Assembly (NCBI GenBank): GCA_031367385.1
Contig: JANLPS010000060.1
Span: forward strand, 1 to 10,058
DNA: 10,058 bases
DNA from: Archangium sp.
GTDB lineage: Bacteria; Myxococcota; Myxococcia; Myxococcales; Myxococcaceae
Direction: 5' to 3'
The number at the start of each line of letters is the position of its first letter. Position 1 is the stretch's first letter. Under the pieces are notes generated by a model. The model had not been told where the DNA came from, searched no databases, and worked only from the letters and a program-made list of their open reading frames with translations. This document shows, piece by piece, positions 1,789 to 9,539 of the stretch. A program made the translations under genes and the position numbers.

Positions 1789-3351
1789 TCAGAAAAATTG
1801 GCGAACCGTGAAGCGCCGCGCACCCCACAACCACGCCAGAAAGACCGCGACGATCATCACCAGGTCGATACACGACTGTGCGTCGAAATAGTCATCCATC
1901 CGCATGCTCGGCGCGGGCACCAGGCGCCCAACGAGCAAACCCGCCACCAACACCATCGCCGCCGCCCGACTCACGCGCGTGCCGACCGCCAGAAACGCGA
2001 GCACCGCCTCGTAGTAACACGAGAGCGTCGCTGCGAAGGGTATCAGCCCAACCGACGTCGCCGCCGCCGACCCCAGCCGGCCTCGGCGTGCCACCGCCAC
2101 CCACAGCCCCAACGCGGCCAAACGCAACACCCAGGTCAGCCCACGAACGCGCTCGTGCACCTGAGCTCGCAGCGCAGACCACGACTCGAACAGCATCGCC
2201 GGGTCAGGCTCCGAAATCTTCTCCAAGCGCGCGTCAGACGCCACCGCCAGCGCCGGCTGCAAGCCCATCTGGTTGTACGACCACGCGCTACCGTGCGTGC
2301 GCAGGTTCTCGAACGACTCGGTGAACAACCGCCAATCGTGTTGCCCCGCCGCCGCGCCGCACAGAACGAGCGTCGCGATGCCCGCTCCGAGCAGCAAACG
2401 CCCGGCGCGTTTTCGATCTCTGCCCGGCAATAGCGCAGCGCCAACCGCTGCGACCAACACCAGCGCGGGAAACACGCGGAGCAACGCGGCATACGCGAAC
2501 GCGGCGCCCGCCAGGCGGTCTCGTCGAAAGCGCAGAAACGCCAACCCGACCGCGAGCGCCACCCACCAGTCGTTGCGCAAGAACGAGCCGCCCGCCCAGT
2601 CGAACCGGTTGGGCACATGGCACCCCCACACCAGCATCACCACCATCAGCGTGCGCCCACCGAAGGCCCGAAAGAGCACCGCCGCCGCCACCAGAATCAG
2701 CAGCGGGTCGAGCCAGGTCAGCCAGTGCGCCGGGCCAGCGATGATCAGCGGGCTCGCGAGCAACAGCCACACCGGAGGCGCGTTGAACCCATGATCGACC
2801 AACATCGCAGGCAGCAGCGTGCCCTTCGAGCGTCGCTGAAGCTCGTTGAGGTCGTCGGTGAATTCGACCCACCTGGCCTCGTCGAAGCGCCCGCGGCAGG
2901 CCTCGGCCTGCTCCAGCCGCGATGCCGCGCTGCTGATGGCATACGTGCGCAGGTCTCTGACCTGCCAGCCGTCGATGGGCATTCGCTGCTCGACCGCCGC
3001 CGCCAACGCGCAGTCGTACAGACCGGTGTAGCGAAGCTCATCGACGAACCGGGCGCCCAACACGTAGTGCGAAAAATCAGACGGGTGCTCGGGGCTCGCG
3101 AAGTGACCGACGAAGAAATTGGTGCTCGAGGCGAACGCCAGCCCGCTGACGGCCAAGTACAGCGCCTGACGCACTCGGCTCGACAGCCGTGGCGCGACCA
3201 CCAGCACTGAAAGCCCGAGCACCACGACCCCGGTGGCGGCGATGCTGGCCTTTGACCCAGTGGTGACCCAAGGGCTCAGCGCTCCGCCCGCGAGGCACCC
3301 CACCGCGAAGCAGAGTGCCGCCTGCAGAGCTCGTCGTTTTTTCGGTCGCAT
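1789..3351 (-). CDS. Polytopic membrane protein, probable GT-C fold glycosyltransferase (GT87/DUF2029-like)
   Basis: Many hydrophobic helices, with a large soluble loop after the N-terminal helices (SDFSHYVLGARF..ELRYTGLYDC..RDLRT..C..RW..F..D..DHGFNAPPVW). Later motifs WAGGSFLRNDW and AGAAFAYAALLRVFP resemble the GT87 'AG...A...K..P' segment. The start is uncertain (ATG 3351 preferred; the ORF is open to 3393). Confidence 0.62.
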   Translation of the reverse strand: MRPKKRRALQAALCFAVGCLAGGALSPWVTTGSKASIAATGVVVLGLSVLVVAPRLSSRVRQALYLAVSGLAFASSTNFFVGHFASPEHPSDFSHYVLGARFVDELRYTGLYDCALAAAVEQRMPIDGWQVRDLRTYAISSAASRLEQAEACRGRFDEARWVEFTDDLNELQRRSKGTLLPAMLVDHGFNAPPVWLLLASPLIIAGPAHWLTWLDPLLILVAAAVLFRAFGGRTLMVVMLVWGCHVPNRFDWAGGSFLRNDWWVALAVGLAFLRFRRDRLAGAAFAYAALLRVFPALVLVAAVGAALLPGRDRKRAGRLLLGAGIATLVLCGAAAGQHDWRLFTESFENLRTHGSAWSYNQMGLQPALAVASDARLEKISEPDPAMLFESWSALRAQVHERVRGLTWVLRLAALGLWVAVARRGRLGSAAATSVGLIPFAATLSCYYEAVLAFLAVGTRVSRAAAMVLVAGLLVGRLVPAPSMRMDDYFDAQSCIDLVMIVAVFLAWLWGARRFTVRQFF

Positions 3352-3431
3352 CGCCCGAACCACCCTTCTCGTGGGAGATCGCCGCAAAATCAACCCGTAT
3401 CAGGCCCGTCGTGCACCGGTGAGCACACACA

Positions 3432-3521: not shown

Positions 3522-4562
3522 GTGACGACCCCAGTCAAAGCCAGCGCGACCCAAGCCCCCGCCCAAGTCGGAGGCCAGAAGGTCAATGACGCCAAAGCGG
3601 CCATTCTGATCAACTCCGCGCGCAAAGACCTCGGGTACCACGAGGGCCCCAACAACAGTAACAAGTTCACCAAGGCGCCCAACGCTCCGTGGTGTGCCGG
3701 CTTCGTCAGCGCGAAGCTCAAAGAAGCCGGAGTGGCTGGCATCAAAGGCAGCGACGGGTGTGCGGAGCTCGCCAACCAATTCAAAGCTGCTGGCAAGTAC
3801 ACGGACTCGAGCAAGCCGCCGCAGCCGGGCGACGTCATCTTCTTCGGCAACCCGCCACACCACACCGGCATCGTGCAGAAGGTCGACCTCGCCTCGGGCA
3901 GGGTCTACACCATCGAGGGCAACTCGAGCGACGCGGTCAGCCAGTGCTCGTACAGCCTCAAAGACGGTGGCATCAGCGGCTACGGCAAGACCTTCGCGCC
4001 GGGCACCGTGCGCGACGACCTCGGCTTCAACGTGAGCGAGGCGAACGCCCAAAAAGCCGGCGGTGCTCCACGAAACCCGGCCGCCGCGCGGGCCAACCCG
4101 AGCCAGGCCACCGAGACCGGCCGCGACGGTGGCGTGTACGGCCGCTACAACTACTTGCTCGCGCTGCTCGAGGCGATTCTCAACAGCGACACCGAGGCCA
4201 TCACGGCGTTGATGAAAGAGCTCTTCCCCAACGCGACGCCCGAGCAGATCGACGGCGCGATGAACGCGCTCAAGAACGACCCCGAGCTGATGGCGCAGAT
4301 GCTCGCCAACCCCGAGCCGATGATGAACGCGCTGTTGGCCGATTCGTCGCCCGCCGGCATCGACGCGGTGAAGCGTTCGCCGCCCAAACCCGCGCCGGGC
4401 ACCGCCGAAGACAACGCCCAGCTCGCCAAAGACATCTTGCGCTCGACCGAGCTCAACCCGGCCGGCGAGCGGCTGCGTGAGCAAACGCTGGCGCTGGCGA
4501 ACAAGCCCAAGTCGCAGGGCTGGGTGCCCAAGACCTCGGGCTTCGCCCCCACCGAGAAGTGA
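3522..4562 (+). CDS. CHAP-domain (cysteine, histidine-dependent amidohydrolase/peptidase) protein with helical C-terminal region, 346 aa
   Basis: Motifs G..EGPNNSNKF, PWCAGFVS (Cys58), PQPGDVIFF, HHTGIV (His114) and TIEGNSSDAV (Glu132). GGAG RBS at 3513-3516 precedes GTG 3522. Strong GC3 codon bias. Confidence 0.9.
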   Translation: MTTPVKASATQAPAQVGGQKVNDAKAAILINSARKDLGYHEGPNNSNKFTKAPNAPWCAGFVSAKLKEAGVAGIKGSDGCAELANQFKAAGKYTDSSKPPQPGDVIFFGNPPHHTGIVQKVDLASGRVYTIEGNSSDAVSQCSYSLKDGGISGYGKTFAPGTVRDDLGFNVSEANAQKAGGAPRNPAAARANPSQATETGRDGGVYGRYNYLLALLEAILNSDTEAITALMKELFPNATPEQIDGAMNALKNDPELMAQMLANPEPMMNALLADSSPAGIDAVKRSPPKPAPGTAEDNAQLAKDILRSTELNPAGERLREQTLALANKPKSQGWVPKTSGFAPTEK

Positions 4563-7006
4563 CCTCTCGCCTCTCGCAGGTGCTGGCCGAGCGGGTCGCT
4601 CCGAACGCCCCTGCTCCGCGGCCCGGCGCCTTCGTCGTCTATTGGATGCGGGTCGCCGTTCGCGCGACCGAGAACCCTTCGCTCGACGTCGCGTTGTCGA
4701 TGGCCAGGGCGTTGGGCGTGCCGTGCTTCGTCTATCACGCCATCTCAGAGCGCTACCGCTACGCGTCTGATCGCGTGCACACCTTCATGCTCGAGGGAGC
4801 CCGCGACGTGCAGCAGGCGATGGCCGCGCGCGGCGTGGGCTACGTGTTTCACCTGCAGCACGCGAATGATCAATCGCCCCACTTGCTCACCCTCGCGAAG
4901 CAGGCCGCGCTGGTCGTCACCGATGCGATGCCGGTGCAGCCCCTGCAGAAGTGGGACGCTCAGGTCGCCGCTGTCGCGCCCCTGTGGAGAGTCGACGCCT
5001 CGTGCCTGGCACCGATGTGGTTGGTCGAGGCTCCGTTCGAGCGGGCCTTCGAGTTCACCGCCGCGCTCAAGCCACTCTGGGCCCAGCGAATCGACGCGGC
5101 GTGGGTCGACGTCGAGCCGCACCACCCTCCCTTCGTGCCGCCGCTGCCGTTCAGCCCGCTCTCGCTTCAGGGTGAAGACCTGCCGGCGCTGGTGGCGATG
5201 TGCGACATCGATCACTCGATTGGCCCGGTGCACCACACGCCCGGAGGCTCGAGCGCGGCCGGCGAGCGCTGGCAGCGGTTTCTGACCGAGCGCATCGACC
5301 ACTACGCGAGCGATCGCAATGACCCGTTGCTCGCGGGCACCAGCCGCATGTCGGGCTACCTGCACTTCGGGCACATCTCGCCTTTTCGAATGGCCCGCGA
5401 AGCCAACGCGCGGCGCACCAAAGGGGCCGAGAAGTTTCTCAATGAGCTGCTCACCTGGCGCGAGCTCGCGTGGAACTTCTGCCGCTTCAACACCGAGCTC
5501 GACTCGATTCAGACCTTGCCGGCGTGGGCACGCGAGACGCTCAAGGCGCACGAGCGAGATCGCCGCGAATTCTTGCCCTCGTGGGAGCAACTCGCCCGGG
5601 CCCAGACCGGCGACCCCCTGTGGGACGCGGCGCAACGGCAGCTGCTGACCCACGGCGAGCTGCACAACAACGTACGAATGGCCTGGGGCAAGGCACTCGT
5701 CGGGTGGACCCGTACGGCGCAAGAGGCCCTCACCTTGCTGCTCGACCTGAACCACCGCTTCGCGCTCGACGGCCGAGACCCGGGCTCGTACGGCGGCATT
5801 CTCTGGTGCCTGGGGGCCCTCGACCGCCCCTTTCCCGAGCAGCCGTTCTTCGGCACGGTGCGCACGCGGCCCACCGCGGAGTACGGCAAGCGCATCGACC
5901 TGCCCGAGTACTCGCGCCGCACCCGGTTGCCGAGCCGGGGCACGCCTCTGGTGGTGGCGGTGGTCGGTGCCGGAGTCGCAGGCGCCGCCGCCGCCCGCAC
6001 CATCGCTGACGCCGGCCATGCCGTGACGCTCTTCGACAAGGGGCGTGGGCCAGGCGGCCGGGCGTCGACGCGGCACGACGGCGAGTACAGGTTCGACCAC
6101 GGCGCGCAGTACTTCACGGTCGAAGACGAGCGCTTCGCCCGGGTGGCCCGCGCCTGGTGGCACGAGCGGGCCATCACCGAGTGGTCGCCCAGGCTCCTCA
6201 CCTTCGGCGAAAAACCGCCCAGAGCGTCAGACGCGAACACCTCCACCCGCCCCCCGCTGCACCGCCTGGTCGCGACCCCGGGCATGAGCGCGCTGCTCCA
6301 GCGAATGCTCTACGACCTCGACGTTCGATACGGGGTGACGGTGACCGAGCTGCACCGCACCGAGACCCGCTGGCGCCTGGTCGGCGGCGACCAGACCGCG
6401 CTCGGTGAGTTCGATGCCCTGGTCTTGGCCGCGCCCGCCCCGCAATCAGCCGCGCTGCTCGACCCCGCCTCGTTCGCGATGGCCTCGCGCATTCGCGAAG
6501 CGCAGTACGCACCGTGCTGGGCCCTGATGTTGGCCTTCGACGAGCCACTCGGCCTCGAGCTCGACGCGGCGTTCGTGAACATCGGGCCCCTCAAGTGGCT
6601 CTCTCGCGACTCGAGCAAGCCCGAGCGAGCACCCGGCGAGCGCTGGGTGTTGCACGCCACCGCCGACTGGAGCCAGAAACACCTCGAGTCGGCCCCTGAA
6701 GAAATCACCGCCATTCTGCTCGACGCGTTCTACGCGACCACCGGCGCCCGCCCCACCACGCCCGCGTACGCCAAGGCCCATCGCTGGCGCTACGCGTTCG
6801 TCACCCAGCCCCTCGGCGAGCCCTGCCTGTACATGCCGACCCTGCGCGTCGCGGCCTGCGGTGACTGGTGCCTGGGGGCGAAGATTCAAGCCGCCTACCT
6901 CAGTGGCTGCGCCGCCGGAGGCCGCATCAACGCCATCGCTCCCGATGCCGTACCCGACGACGCCGAGAGCCCCATCACTCGCGCCGCGCAGATGCGGCTG
7001 ATCTAA
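4559..7006 (+). CDS. Fusion protein: class II CPD DNA photolyase (aa ~1-455) plus renalase-like NAD(P)/FAD-dependent oxidoreductase (aa ~464-795), 815 aa
   Basis: Photolyase part: VVYWM..AVR..EN.SL, DRNDP, SRMSGYLHFGHIS, FLNELLTWRELAWNF, TGDPLW, HNNVRMAWGK...W, LNHRFALDGRDP.SYGGILW. Oxidoreductase part: VAVVGAGVAG, FDKGRGPGGRASTR, FDHGAQYFT, HRWRYA, CGDWCLG....AYLSG. One uninterrupted frame; the GTG start overlaps the CHAP stop. Confidence 0.92.
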   Translation: MTSRLSQVLAERVAPNAPAPRPGAFVVYWMRVAVRATENPSLDVALSMARALGVPCFVYHAISERYRYASDRVHTFMLEGARDVQQAMAARGVGYVFHLQHANDQSPHLLTLAKQAALVVTDAMPVQPLQKWDAQVAAVAPLWRVDASCLAPMWLVEAPFERAFEFTAALKPLWAQRIDAAWVDVEPHHPPFVPPLPFSPLSLQGEDLPALVAMCDIDHSIGPVHHTPGGSSAAGERWQRFLTERIDHYASDRNDPLLAGTSRMSGYLHFGHISPFRMAREANARRTKGAEKFLNELLTWRELAWNFCRFNTELDSIQTLPAWARETLKAHERDRREFLPSWEQLARAQTGDPLWDAAQRQLLTHGELHNNVRMAWGKALVGWTRTAQEALTLLLDLNHRFALDGRDPGSYGGILWCLGALDRPFPEQPFFGTVRTRPTAEYGKRIDLPEYSRRTRLPSRGTPLVVAVVGAGVAGAAAARTIADAGHAVTLFDKGRGPGGRASTRHDGEYRFDHGAQYFTVEDERFARVARAWWHERAITEWSPRLLTFGEKPPRASDANTSTRPPLHRLVATPGMSALLQRMLYDLDVRYGVTVTELHRTETRWRLVGGDQTALGEFDALVLAAPAPQSAALLDPASFAMASRIREAQYAPCWALMLAFDEPLGLELDAAFVNIGPLKWLSRDSSKPERAPGERWVLHATADWSQKHLESAPEEITAILLDAFYATTGARPTTPAYAKAHRWRYAFVTQPLGEPCLYMPTLRVAACGDWCLGAKIQAAYLSGCAAGGRINAIAPDAVPDDAESPITRAAQMRLI

Positions 7007-7470
7007 CCGGCCTTCCACCCCTGGGGGGCCGGCGAACCCAGCCGCTCGAGCCCAGAGACCGTCTCGTAGATGCTCGCGTAGTTGGCTTCACCGGGGTTGT
7101 TGTAGGCCCGCGTCACCGCCTGCAAGACACTCTCGAGCTGTGGGTCGAGCCCGGCCCTTTTCTTCGGAGGGGCGCGCGCCATATCGAGCACCGAGTGCCA
7201 CTTTCCTTCGGGCGAGCGAAGAAAAGTCCACGGGCCATCCATTTCGTCGAGCGCGATGTCACCGACCTTGGTGCGATACACGACGGCAGAAAGTTTGCCG
7301 TTGTTGTCGAGCCTCAAGTCAGGGTCACGACTGGCCCCTTTGGGTCGATACGCCGCAGCATCGACCCAATGGCCAGCGGCGCTCGTGGCACCAATGTCAG
7401 GGGCGTCGTGGGTGTAGGAATGCGCGAAGAGGTACTCGAGCCCGACTCGGGGGTCTTTGTTCGCCGGCAT
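7003..7470 (-). CDS. Hypothetical protein (~155 aa; alternative start at 7545)
   Basis: Open frame with globular-protein composition that fills the gap between plus-strand genes. Its stop overlaps the photolyase fusion stop (CTAA, 7003-7006). No family recognised. Confidence 0.65.
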   Translation of the reverse strand: MPANKDPRVGLEYLFAHSYTHDAPDIGATSAAGHWVDAAAYRPKGASRDPDLRLDNNGKLSAVVYRTKVGDIALDEMDGPWTFLRSPEGKWHSVLDMARAPPKKRAGLDPQLESVLQAVTRAYNNPGEANYASIYETVSGLERLGSPAPQGWKAG

Positions 7471-7607
7471 TCGCAGCGAAGAATTGACGCCCTGATTCGC
7501 AACTTCGGTGTGTCGAAAGAGAGATCTCAGGGCGGTCAAGAACATCGGTCTCTCGTACCGCACAAACCCTGCGGGCCTCAACCCCCCCGGGGTGGTACTG
7601 AAGGGGC

Positions 7608-7925: not shown

Positions 7926-9539
7926 ATGTCTCGCTCGCTGCTGCTGGGTTGTTTGGTGTTGTCGACTGCCACGCTCGCTGCCGATTCGGCGACCCGCTCG
8001 TTCAAGAATGCCGCTGACGCCGTCGAAGACGCCTTCGACCGAACCAAGCGCACCAGCCCCACCTGCCGTGAGAACATCGGCCGGCAGCTCGATGCCCTGG
8101 TCGACCGCATCGACGCGCTCAAGCAGGGGGCCACCGACCAGTCGATCAACGGCCTCAAACAGGAGCTCTCCATGCTCGGCATGTCCGCTCCGATGGCCGG
8201 GTGCCCGGTCGACGTGAACGACGACATTCAAAAGGCGGTGGGCTTTCTCGAAGAAGGCCGTGCCGCGATGTGGGGCAACACCGGGCGCCGCGCCGATGAT
8301 CGCCGCAACCGCCGCCATGACGACGAGCCGGTGTTCACCCAGACCGAGAGCTTCGTGCAGATGGGGCCGCTGACGGTGCAACCGAACGCCCGGTTCGAAG
8401 GCGAGAACGCCGTGCGGGTGGTCGTGCCCGAGCTGAAGATCTTCAACATGCAGGGCAAGCCGTTCTCGGTGGGCGCGCGCTTTCGCTCGTACGAAGGCCA
8501 GTGGAGCGACTGGGTCACCACCCAGACCTGGGCCGTGCCCAACAACGCCTTCGTGTGGAAGAACGCGTTCAACCACTTCTTTCGCTACTCGAGCCTCGCC
8601 GAAGACGACTTCAGCCAGGGCCGGTTCATCGCGCACGTCTCGGTGTTCGACAGCGACGGGCGCGAGCTGGCCTTTCGCGAAGCGAGCTTCAAGGTGCGCT
8701 TGCCGCAGCTGCCAAGCCCGGTGGGCCCAGGGCCTCTGGGGGTGCCTCCGGTGGTGCAGGCGCGCGACTGTGGCCCCGGCGCAGACATCGGCTGCAACAT
8801 GACCCGCGACGGCCAATACCCGATGGACGCGCAGGTCTTCGCCGGCGTGCTGGAGTCGCTGCGCAGCTGGAGCACCGAGACGATGCGCGCACAGTCGGTG
8901 CAGGTCATCACCCAGCGGCAGTACCTGACGGCGGCGCAGCTGGGGGCCGTGCTCGACCTCTTTCGCACCGAAGAGCTTCGGCTGCAGGCGGCGCGGTTCG
9001 CGGCACCCCGGGTCGTCAACCCGCAGCACTCGCTGGGCCTGGCCGCGAAGTTTCGCACCGAGCAGTACGGGCAGGCGTTTCTGCAGCTGATGTCAGAGCA
9101 GCCGCCGGGAGGCATGCCCGGCACCCAGCCTCCGCCGGTGGTGCTCCCGAACGCACCCCCGCCGCCTCCAGTGCAGGGGCCGCCGCAAGCCTACCGAGAC
9201 TGCGGTACGGGCTCAGACCCGGGCTGCACGATGTGGCACAAGGGCCGGCAGGCGGCCGACGCGCCCACCTTCGCAGGCGTGCTGACCGTGCTTCGCAGCA
9301 ACGCCAATGAGCTGACCCGGGCCGAGGTCGCGAACACGATGATCGGCAGCCATTGGGTGACCGCCGCGCAGCTGGGCCTGGTGTTGGATTTGTTCAGCAA
9401 TGAGCTGGTGCGGCTCGATGTGGCGAAGCGGGCCGCCGAGCACGTGGTCAACCCGCAGCACGCGCTCGCGTTGGCGGCGAAGTTTCAGAACTCATTCAAC
9501 GCGCAGGAGCTCGTCGAAGTGATGTCGAGGCAACGCTAG
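7926..9539 (+). CDS. Secreted protein with two C-terminal DUF4476-like domains, 537 aa
   Basis: Sec-type signal (MSRSLLLGCLVLSTATLA-A), a helical N-domain and a beta-rich middle domain. These are followed by two repeats matching the DUF4476 pattern (F..vL..LRS...E..R......TAAQLG.VLDLF..E..RL..A......VVNPQH.L.LAAKF), separated by a Pro-rich linker. Confidence 0.8.
   Translation: MSRSLLLGCLVLSTATLAADSATRSFKNAADAVEDAFDRTKRTSPTCRENIGRQLDALVDRIDALKQGATDQSINGLKQELSMLGMSAPMAGCPVDVNDDIQKAVGFLEEGRAAMWGNTGRRADDRRNRRHDDEPVFTQTESFVQMGPLTVQPNARFEGENAVRVVVPELKIFNMQGKPFSVGARFRSYEGQWSDWVTTQTWAVPNNAFVWKNAFNHFFRYSSLAEDDFSQGRFIAHVSVFDSDGRELAFREASFKVRLPQLPSPVGPGPLGVPPVVQARDCGPGADIGCNMTRDGQYPMDAQVFAGVLESLRSWSTETMRAQSVQVITQRQYLTAAQLGAVLDLFRTEELRLQAARFAAPRVVNPQHSLGLAAKFRTEQYGQAFLQLMSEQPPGGMPGTQPPPVVLPNAPPPPPVQGPPQAYRDCGTGSDPGCTMWHKGRQAADAPTFAGVLTVLRSNANELTRAEVANTMIGSHWVTAAQLGLVLDLFSNELVRLDVAKRAAEHVVNPQHALALAAKFQNSFNAQELVEVMSRQR
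8763..9536 (+). repeat. Intragenic domain duplication (~113 aa units starting at 8763 and 9195; offset 432 nt)
   Basis: RDCGPGADIGCNM...TAAQLGAVLDLF...VVNPQHSLGLAAKF versus RDCGTGSDPGCTM...TAAQLGLVLDLF...VVNPQHALALAAKF. Similarity is also visible in the DNA (GTCAACCCGCAGCAC in both). Confidence 0.92.

Follow-up and report, generated by a model that had tools for sequence, protein, structure and literature searches.

The 10,058-nucleotide stretch of Archangium sp. DNA analysed here (the window) carries a gene in which a class II-like photolyase is fused to a renalase-type flavin adenine dinucleotide (FAD) oxidase. The gene is a single uninterrupted frame and ends in a short tail of the sliding-clamp type. 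Its features are given below with window coordinates, strand and the evidence used; Mm denotes residue numbers of the Methanosarcina mazei class II enzyme.

4559-7006, plus strand: whole fusion gene of 815 amino acids, with photolyase, renalase-type oxidase and clamp-type tail (frame, profile, homologue and run evidence).
4577-5923, plus strand: class II-like photolyase module, residues 7-455, with antenna-type and FAD-binding domains (profile, alignment and fold).
5573-5605, plus strand: loop and helix of residues 339-349, predicted to be part of the interface between the halves, with P340 (Mm Y345 position), the fusion-specific W342 and R347 (alignment and predicted complex).
5621-5707, plus strand: class II tryptophan triad W355, W376 and W383 (Mm W360, W381 and W388) and HNNVRMxW motif (alignment).
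5924-5944, plus strand: linker, residues 456-462 (model and homologue spacing).
5945-6946, plus strand: renalase-type FAD oxidase module, residues 463-796, with GxGxxG, GGR, DHGAQYF, H699, HRW and GDW (alignment and fold).
6947-6988, plus strand: flexible spacer, residues 797-810, with a predicted local distance difference test (pLDDT) below 50 at 799-805 (AlphaFold model).
6989-7003, plus strand: C-terminal QMRLI, a variant beta sliding-clamp motif, with putative binding (motif comparison).

The GTG start of the fusion shares the letters GTGA (4559-4562) with the stop of an upstream CHAP-domain gene, and the start point agreed with the start of homologues. The original prediction had described a single 815-codon frame with a photolyase, a linker and a second FAD enzyme, and the motifs were found where it had placed them: GAGVAG starts at nucleotide 5966 (G470), GGRASTR covers residues 499-505, FDHGAQYFT 512-520 and CGDW 767-770. 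A stop or frameshift at the linker was looked for and no break was detected. Contigs from 4 of 4 runs in 2 studies spanned the linker with zero letter differences (the DNA of the window may itself derive from two of the runs), and the spacing between its flanking motifs was 31 residues in 131 of the 140 measurable homologues (of 184). Since 119 of 120 homologues, among the matches listed, covered at least 91% of the protein, an artefact of frame or assembly was excluded; the linker-spanning contigs and fused genome loci also spoke against it. The host genome is 7.97 Mb in size and 98% complete, and the nearest relatives that bear a name belong to the Myxococcales/Myxococcaceae. No sigma-70-like promoter was found between 3300 and 7700.

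Profile searches confirmed the proposed domain identities, with Pfam matches to DNA_photolyase (26-157), FAD_binding_7 (297-379), NAD_binding_8 (468-530) and Amino_oxidase. The AlphaFold model of the full fusion reached a pLDDT of 91.6 and a predicted template modelling score (pTM) of 0.91, and structure comparison matched it to known folds half by half. No solved structure spanning both halves was present among the structure matches listed.

The best solved sequence match of the N-terminal half was the M. mazei class II photolyase (E 7e-63; class I 4e-09), and its fold gave a Z score of 43.7 to the class II structure 8oet (root-mean-square deviation 2.5, 440 residues aligned) against a comparison value of 31.9. 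Mm numbers were obtained by pairwise alignment and equal the query number plus 5 in the FAD domain. For conservation counts we used 335 homologues, reduced to 296 by dropping sequences more than 95% alike, in which 184 full fusions were left. The tryptophans of the triad (W376, W355 and W383 for Mm W381, W360 and W388) were kept in 184, 184 and 182 of these. The core residues Y249, S265, E296, W300, R373, M374, N398, D404 and W416 are present, as are equivalents of the FAD-site residues N403 and R378-D409 and of the lesion-pocket residues E301, W305, M379, W421 and N257; the roles we assign to these residues are partly our own assumption and partly taken from the literature. A 12-residue photolyase core was complete in 172 of 184 fusions, and the basic residues of the DNA face, R435, R437 and R423, were kept in 184, 182 and 177, respectively. 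Departures from class II were found at N370 (Mm G375, HN instead of HG), P340 (Y345), A/T375 (Y380), H399 (D404), F425 (W431) and T436/R437 (Y442/M443). The TIGR00591 phr2 profile scored 326.3 bits, below its cut-off of 550.05, and so did the stand-alone paralogue of the same genome (338.2). Judged by its residues, this half is a member of a divergent class II-like subfamily and not a canonical class II enzyme. Of the class II cyclobutane pyrimidine dimer (CPD) photolyase that had been proposed, the class II-like sequence and fold stood; the canonical assignment did not, with residues replaced and the TIGR00591 cut-off missed. Given light and FADH-, the half would split pyrimidine dimers.

The paralogue (G000:C150:18563-20044; L001:6564-8045) is another class II-like photolyase; it stands alone, carries the motif HNYLRMLW and shares 35% identity with the fused copy. 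It retains the Mm Y345, W431, Y442 and M443 equivalents that are missing from the fused copy, and it ends without a clamp-type tail. Neither this paralogue nor the clamp-type tail of the fusion had been noticed in the original prediction. A match to the FeS-type (6-4) photolyase family (PF04244) at G000:C7:11164-11808 is the third photolyase-family gene of the genome.

The C-terminal half best matched the Pseudomonas renalase 4zcc (E 8e-65), with a fold Z score of 43.3 to 3kkj (root-mean-square deviation 1.8, 322 residues aligned). The FAD motifs GxGxxG, GGR, DxGAQYF and GDW were near-invariant in fusions. The match, the fold and these motifs bear out the earlier description of a renalase-like NAD(P)/FAD oxidoreductase. 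H699, corresponding to Pseudomonas renalase (Pp) H232, was kept in 173 of 184 fusions, and R744, close to the Pp R280 position, was Arg in 49 of 63 fused oxidases; the active-site roles of Pp H232 and Pp R280 are those we presume. In the oxidase tree 63 of 64 fused oxidases fell together with 2 stand-alone ones in one clade (support 0.831). In the accessible part of PMC7660482, renalase is described as oxidising 1,2- and 1,6-NAD(P)H and not the 1,4 form, and the two isomers as arising by non-specific, including photochemical, reduction in regeneration systems. From its sequence, the oxidase half may convert the 1,2- and 1,6-dihydro isomers of NAD(P)H, or a close substrate, into NAD(P)+. A distant renalase-like oxidoreductase was also detected in the host genome at G000:C41:20378-22320 (L002). 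It overlaps a downstream frame that, by a motif we take to be characteristic, resembles GTP cyclohydrolase II.

In a species-level genome collection at least 586 stretches encode a relative, and the best 80 were inspected. Both halves lay in one frame in 80 of 80 of these best loci, 3 of them with a frameshift elsewhere in the gene; this count is biased toward fusions because the loci were ranked by the full-length query. Relatives are mostly fused; that they always encode two separate genes, which would have spoken against the original prediction, did not hold. Record titles placed relatives in Myxococcota, Planctomycetota, Gemmatimonadota, Acidobacteriota, Rhodothermales, Bdellovibrionales and Pseudomonadota, and the fusion is widespread, being present in at least 6 phyla. 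Within the phylum of the window, 239 of 401 genomes gave a class II-like match, among which 43 top places stood apart with 47-100% identity; 35 of the 43 were inspected, and 32 were fused, 1 was cut by a contig end and 2 were stand-alone. A 301-genome sample around a Pirellulaceae genome contained 6 genomes with a full-length match (frames of 836-897 amino acids), and the 3 inspected were all fused. The fusion is common but patchy, usually as an extra photolyase copy. That the two halves are always fused was rejected: in two genomes, G036 and G010, the clade photolyase stands by itself and a renalase gene is found on a different contig. Long frames that looked like further fusions of stand-alone class II genes occurred in 6 Myxococcota genomes; their translations, judged by eye, showed upstream read-through of GC-rich DNA, and they were discarded.

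The architecture was already in databases under generic names, as the original prediction had thought possible. No functional study of the fusion was found in the literature searched, most subscription journals being outside its coverage, and the terms photolyase and renalase occurred together only in unrelated papers. The words fusion and oxidoreductase were not found in the accessible part of Emmerich 2020 (PMC7736829).

Among the 80 loci there was no neighbour gene common to the whole family; the neighbours included SDR genes (about 12), FeS-type photolyases (about 10) and FAD_binding_7 photolyases (about 9). Planctomycete fusions (L024, L027, L034, L040, L045, L046 and L056) often lie near an SDR gene or an FeS-type or FAD_binding_7 photolyase. 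In the window the fusion is directly preceded by the CHAP-domain gene (3522-4562, plus strand; PF05257, TIGR02594), which did not recur among the top neighbour clusters of relatives. The minus strand encodes a 534-residue membrane protein (1789-3393) and a 192-residue frame (7003-7581) lacking any hit in Pfam or NCBIfam. On the plus strand, 7926-9539 encodes a DUF4476 protein that looks secreted.

Either half can be lost or decay. Both catalytic cores were kept in 157 of 184 full fusions, the photolyase core only in 15 and the oxidase core only in 12. A search limited to 228-728 amino acids gave 120 proteins among the matches listed, 58 of them with an oxidase match. A selection by eye kept 15 stand-alone proteins whose natural ends agree and 17 proteins with a shrunken tail; the others were set aside as likely fragments or frameshifts. 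Only for L114 and L115 was the DNA consulted to confirm that they stand alone. The photolyase tree (120 sequences, FastTree, rooted on a canonical class II enzyme, many inner nodes weak) joined fused, remnant and stand-alone forms in one clade (support 0.906), in which 17 stand-alone and 17 remnant members nest at several separate places. All 15 of the stand-alone members that were scored had a complete photolyase core, as did 16 of the 17 remnants.

The remnants, pseudo-renalases of about 130-245 amino acids, are products of in-frame deletion inside the oxidase. Their profile matches fall within positions 1-176 and, in most, again within 291-350; the substrate domain is missing, GGR and HRW are kept in 0 of 17 each and GDW in 1 of 17. 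The shrunken form apparently arose several times. The remnant proteins are:

P0124, P0133, P0136, P0140, P0141, P0145, P0147, P0148, P0152;
P0162, P0165, P0176, P0183, P0189, P0198, P0201, P0215.

The reverse was found in L117, L118 and L186, where the oxidase is intact and the active site of the photolyase has decayed; the last of these (L186:3759-6182) is a fusion in a genome of 1.6 Mb (G421). Because either half can be lost or decay while the other stays, obligate coupling is unlikely. The earlier proposals that the oxidase supplies electrons or flavin to the photolyase, or is placed under light control by it, are weakened in their obligate form, each half having been lost or having decayed while the other kept its catalytic residues.

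For the packing of the two halves, these were folded as two chains with FAD, using our own alignment and ligand; the chains share alignment rows and come from one gene. The predicted complex had an interface score of 0.94 versus 0.00 for the best of 3 controls. Of 157 solved complexes 116 reached the mark used for this score, as did 2 of 215 mismatched pairs; these counts serve only as a rough guide here. Runs agreed in at least 96% of contacts, with a partner pLDDT of at least 92. On the photolyase side the predicted interface comprises residues 71, 75, 209-226, 339-349 and 363-364, and on the oxidase side the helices 477-486, 525-536 and 784-795. Conservation of fusion-specific residues supports this surface. 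R480 was present in 182 of 184 fusions versus 4 of 11 stand-alone oxidases (60/63 versus 19/59 in the larger-tree set), D484 in 181 of 184 versus 1 of 11 (58/63 versus 8/59), W342 in 130 of 184 fusions versus 0 of 15 stand-alone clade photolyases, and R347 in 180 of 184 versus 5 of 15. D218 and H219, considered as further fusion-specific positions, were rejected since unfused outgroups keep them too (16/16). The loop 339-349 holds the Mm Y345 position; in the prediction the oxidase, rigidly packed, therefore sits next to the exit of the photolyase tryptophan chain.

According to the accessible text of PMC5885780, Mm Y345 is a fourth electron donor that lies 3.8 Å away from W388, the last tryptophan of the chain, and is nearly invariant in class II. 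Such a location would allow a redox coupling, in which the isomer-reduced oxidase flavin gives an electron via W533, W/Y529 and W342 to the terminal Trp radical and so acts as a built-in reductant. The predicted interface takes in the loop of Mm Y345, only 37 of 184 fusions have Tyr at that position, W342 is fusion-specific, and position 529 is Trp, Tyr or Phe in 149 of 184. However, 12 of 17 remnants without a second flavin site also have W342, which speaks for a role in packing. The photolyase core is complete in stand-alone members, most of which lack the Tyr as well (6 of 15 have it), and position 529 is Val in this protein. From the known folds we presume a flavin-flavin distance of roughly 25-30 Å or more. 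Extrinsic donors are abundant in cells according to the same partial text (PMC5885780). We consider redox coupling unlikely.

The remnants preserve the predicted interface helices, the ARxLxD helix being kept in 15 of 17, and the model of one of them (P0141) reached a pTM of 0.87 and a pLDDT of 82.8. That remnants keep exactly these helices and still fold with the photolyase, and that fissions occur, could be explained by a near-neutral fusion of neighbouring genes that was kept only because the surfaces became structurally dependent. Against this stands the finding that 157 of 184 members, which come from several phyla and are 43-65% identical, have both active sites, and we hold such an origin to be highly improbable.

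The tail was scored with the pattern Qxx[LM][FLIV] in the last 14 residues, a loose pattern chosen after the tails had been seen and counted in kin that are not independent. It ended 101 of 182 complete fusions and 7 of 17 remnants but none of the 15 stand-alone clade photolyases or 60 stand-alone renalases, and among 31 other class II-like proteins it was seen once. Its background in the host genome was 30 of 3307 frames of at least 400 amino acids. A narrower pattern ended 6 of 8491 host-genome frames, the fusion among them; the other five carriers were exonuclease III, DNA polymerase II, a PA0069 radical SAM protein, an SMC-type ATPase and one ABC ATPase. We take the clamp consensus to be of the QL[S/D]LF type. 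The mycobacterial DnaQ clamp motif is given as Q[Y/L]ALF in the accessible part of its source. In the one literature search on this point no photolyase with a C-terminal clamp-type motif turned up. The comparison of motifs suggests that the fusion tail likely docks on the DNA sliding clamp.

Because the tail follows the oxidase and is retained in the photolyase-dead L117 and L118, it might serve the oxidase. Placed at the clamp, the oxidase would clear inhibitory nicotinamide isomers near the NAD+-dependent ligase, or oxidise another reduced heterocycle. The single clade of nearly all fused oxidases and the R280 equivalent, which is mostly missing, would fit such a role. The substrate-side residues H699, W680, C653 and R744, however, match stand-alone renalase-like proteins, R280 is variable in those too, and the tail is likewise found in 7 of the 17 oxidase-dead remnants. 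We regard a DNA-proximal role of the oxidase as quite unlikely.

The tail also bears on a further idea, a photolyase half that works as a light sensor of the cryptochrome kind and switches the oxidase. Most carriers own another photolyase, the predicted interface is rigid, and E296, W300 or N370 is eroded in a few Myxococcales fusions. Yet most members conserve the residues of the lesion pocket and the DNA face, repeated loss of the oxidase left the photolyase whole, and a clamp-type tail points to DNA. A sensor function is, in our view, very unlikely. We also considered a clamp-riding, self-activating photolyase, in which isomer electrons passing via W533/W529 to W342 and W383 would replace the class II Tyr donor and keep the repair flavin reduced at the replication fork; we see this as speculative and give it little credence.

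The gene neighbourhoods of stand-alone renalases were inspected in a 301-genome sample around a Pseudomonadota genome, covering all 48 renalase places left after the fusion of the centre genome had been set aside. A photolyase-family match lay within about 6 kb in 16 of 48 places, 1 of which was a fusion, leaving 15 of 47 stand-alone renalases. The chance of such proximity is <1% by arithmetic, without a control gene. Ten of 30 plasmid renalase loci were inspected, and 8 of these lay among photolyase, folE, ChrR/sigma, rhodopsin or katG genes (photolyase-family 2, folE 4, ChrR with a sigma factor 1, rhodopsin 1, katG 2, none 2). The earlier suggestion that DNA repair is linked with the repair of nicotinamide metabolites gained support from these neighbourhoods. 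At L192:4683-6980 (minus strand) a gene for a class I/DASH-like photolyase and an SDR gene directly follow a stand-alone oxidase that belongs to the fused clade. On an Asticcacaulis plasmid (L141:5944-8050) a renalase-like gene overlaps a 390-residue photolyase gene with FAD_binding_7 only. In P. mendocina phrB is light-induced by RNA-seq, as seen in the accessible part of PMC9758184. A light-induced FAD-dependent oxidoreductase of the same species adjoins ufaM and DUF1365, probably belongs to another family and was not counted as a renalase.

The fusion is real and conserved. On the whole we favour, as the probable reading, two light-damage repair enzymes that were recruited together into a rigid, likely clamp-tethered unit and are not obligately coupled. 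The photolyase half would pack rigidly on the renalase-type oxidase within one protein, and the C-terminal tail would tether both to the DNA sliding clamp. The former would split pyrimidine dimers by light and FADH-, the latter would return dihydro isomers or a close substrate to NAD(P)+, and the halves would act largely independently. The fusion may fix a partnership that is kept elsewhere as neighbouring genes, possibly under regulation by light. The single frame, the two folds, the wide conservation, the loss of either half in relatives and the enrichment of the tail motif are the observations behind this reading.

Several points weigh against it. The Mm Y345, D404, W431, Y442 and M443 positions are altered from canonical class II, and the N257 equivalent (N254) is kept in only 134 of 184 fusions. 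The genome also encodes stand-alone class II-like (35% identical) and FeS-type photolyases, and 38 of the 43 Myxococcota genomes with the clade hold at least 2 matches (a hand count of matches, not copy numbers); with such extra photolyases plain CPD repair by the fusion would be redundant. The Pp R280 equivalent is F747 here, and since this position varies, the oxidase substrate is uncertain; Arg is found there in 13 of 63 fused oxidases and in 21 of the 59 stand-alone ones, which does not separate the groups. The tail reads QMRLI, and strict QxxLF was found in only 33 of 182 fusions. Simple co-expression would not call for a rigid interface where the electron chain leaves the photolyase. The proximity of renalase to photolyase genes was counted without a control gene and includes kin, as 13 loci share a MerR neighbour and are therefore probably related. 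By gene order we presume that a renalase gene of P. mendocina would lie between PME_6655 and ferrochelatase. The two locus tags at that place are not on the list of more than 2-fold light-induced genes in the accessible part of PMC9758184.

If true, a clamp-tethered photolyase would couple photoreactivation to replication. The physiological role of renalase is unsettled, and the fusion together with the proximity of renalase and photolyase genes makes a role in light stress testable. Cultured carriers exist in Alienimonas chondri LzC2 and Pirellulaceae SH449, and the natural series of full fusion, oxidase remnant, stand-alone and photolyase-dead forms provides ready controls for flavin-to-flavin coupling.

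Compared with the class II photolyases of M. mazei (2XRY, 8OET) and rice (3UMV), the fusion shares the fold (8OET, Z 43.7) and the tryptophan triad, and with the M. mazei enzyme also the equivalents of N403, R378-D409, E301, W305, M379 and W421. It differs from M. mazei in HN for HG at G375 and in the replacement of Y345, Y380, D404, W431, Y442 and M443, and from both in scoring below the TIGR00591 cut-off and in adding a second enzyme and a tail. With the putative bifunctional CPD/(6-4) photolyases like PhrSph98 it shares N384, E310, W314, M388 and N412 (N370, E296, W300, M374 and N398 here), whereas Y389, F376, W381 and D413 are replaced by A375, L362, E367 and H399; these positions were mapped by a numbering offset (the paper's N412 being Mm N403), PhrSph98 not itself being aligned. 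In the accessible part of Fernandez et al. 2022 (PMC9649867, bioRxiv 10.1101/2022.06.29.498140) the legend to a tree of PhrSph98 homologues marks COG3380 domains, nodes 13-14 with Thr or Leu at Y389 are left out, and no discussion of the fusion was found. As Thr occupies the Y389 position in 178 of 184 fusions, the family is probably the one drawn there.

In the light-response clusters of Pseudomonas and Burkholderia with phr and MerR (LitR), photolyase and renalase-like genes likewise occur together and phrB is light-induced; there the genes are separate, the photolyase is of class I and the renalase gene was not seen on the light-induced list, as far as the accessible text of PMC9758184 goes. 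Beta-clamp binders such as DNA polymerase II and mycobacterial DnaQ resemble the fusion in a terminal Q-x-x-L-hydrophobic motif on a flexible spacer, and differ in that most Myxococcales fusion tails end in Ile or Val. The Pseudomonas renalases (4ZCC, 4ZCD, 5KRQ and 3KKJ; COG3380) and human 3QJ4 are 36-37% identical to the oxidase half, with a TM-score of 0.92-0.93 over the target. The FAD motifs and the equivalents of H232, W212, Y57 and F204 of Pseudomonas renalase are retained in the fusion. R280, T185 and R308 are replaced by Phe, Cys and Lys, and the fusion is set apart by the surface residues R480, D484, R528 and G788 and by its covalent tie to a photolyase.

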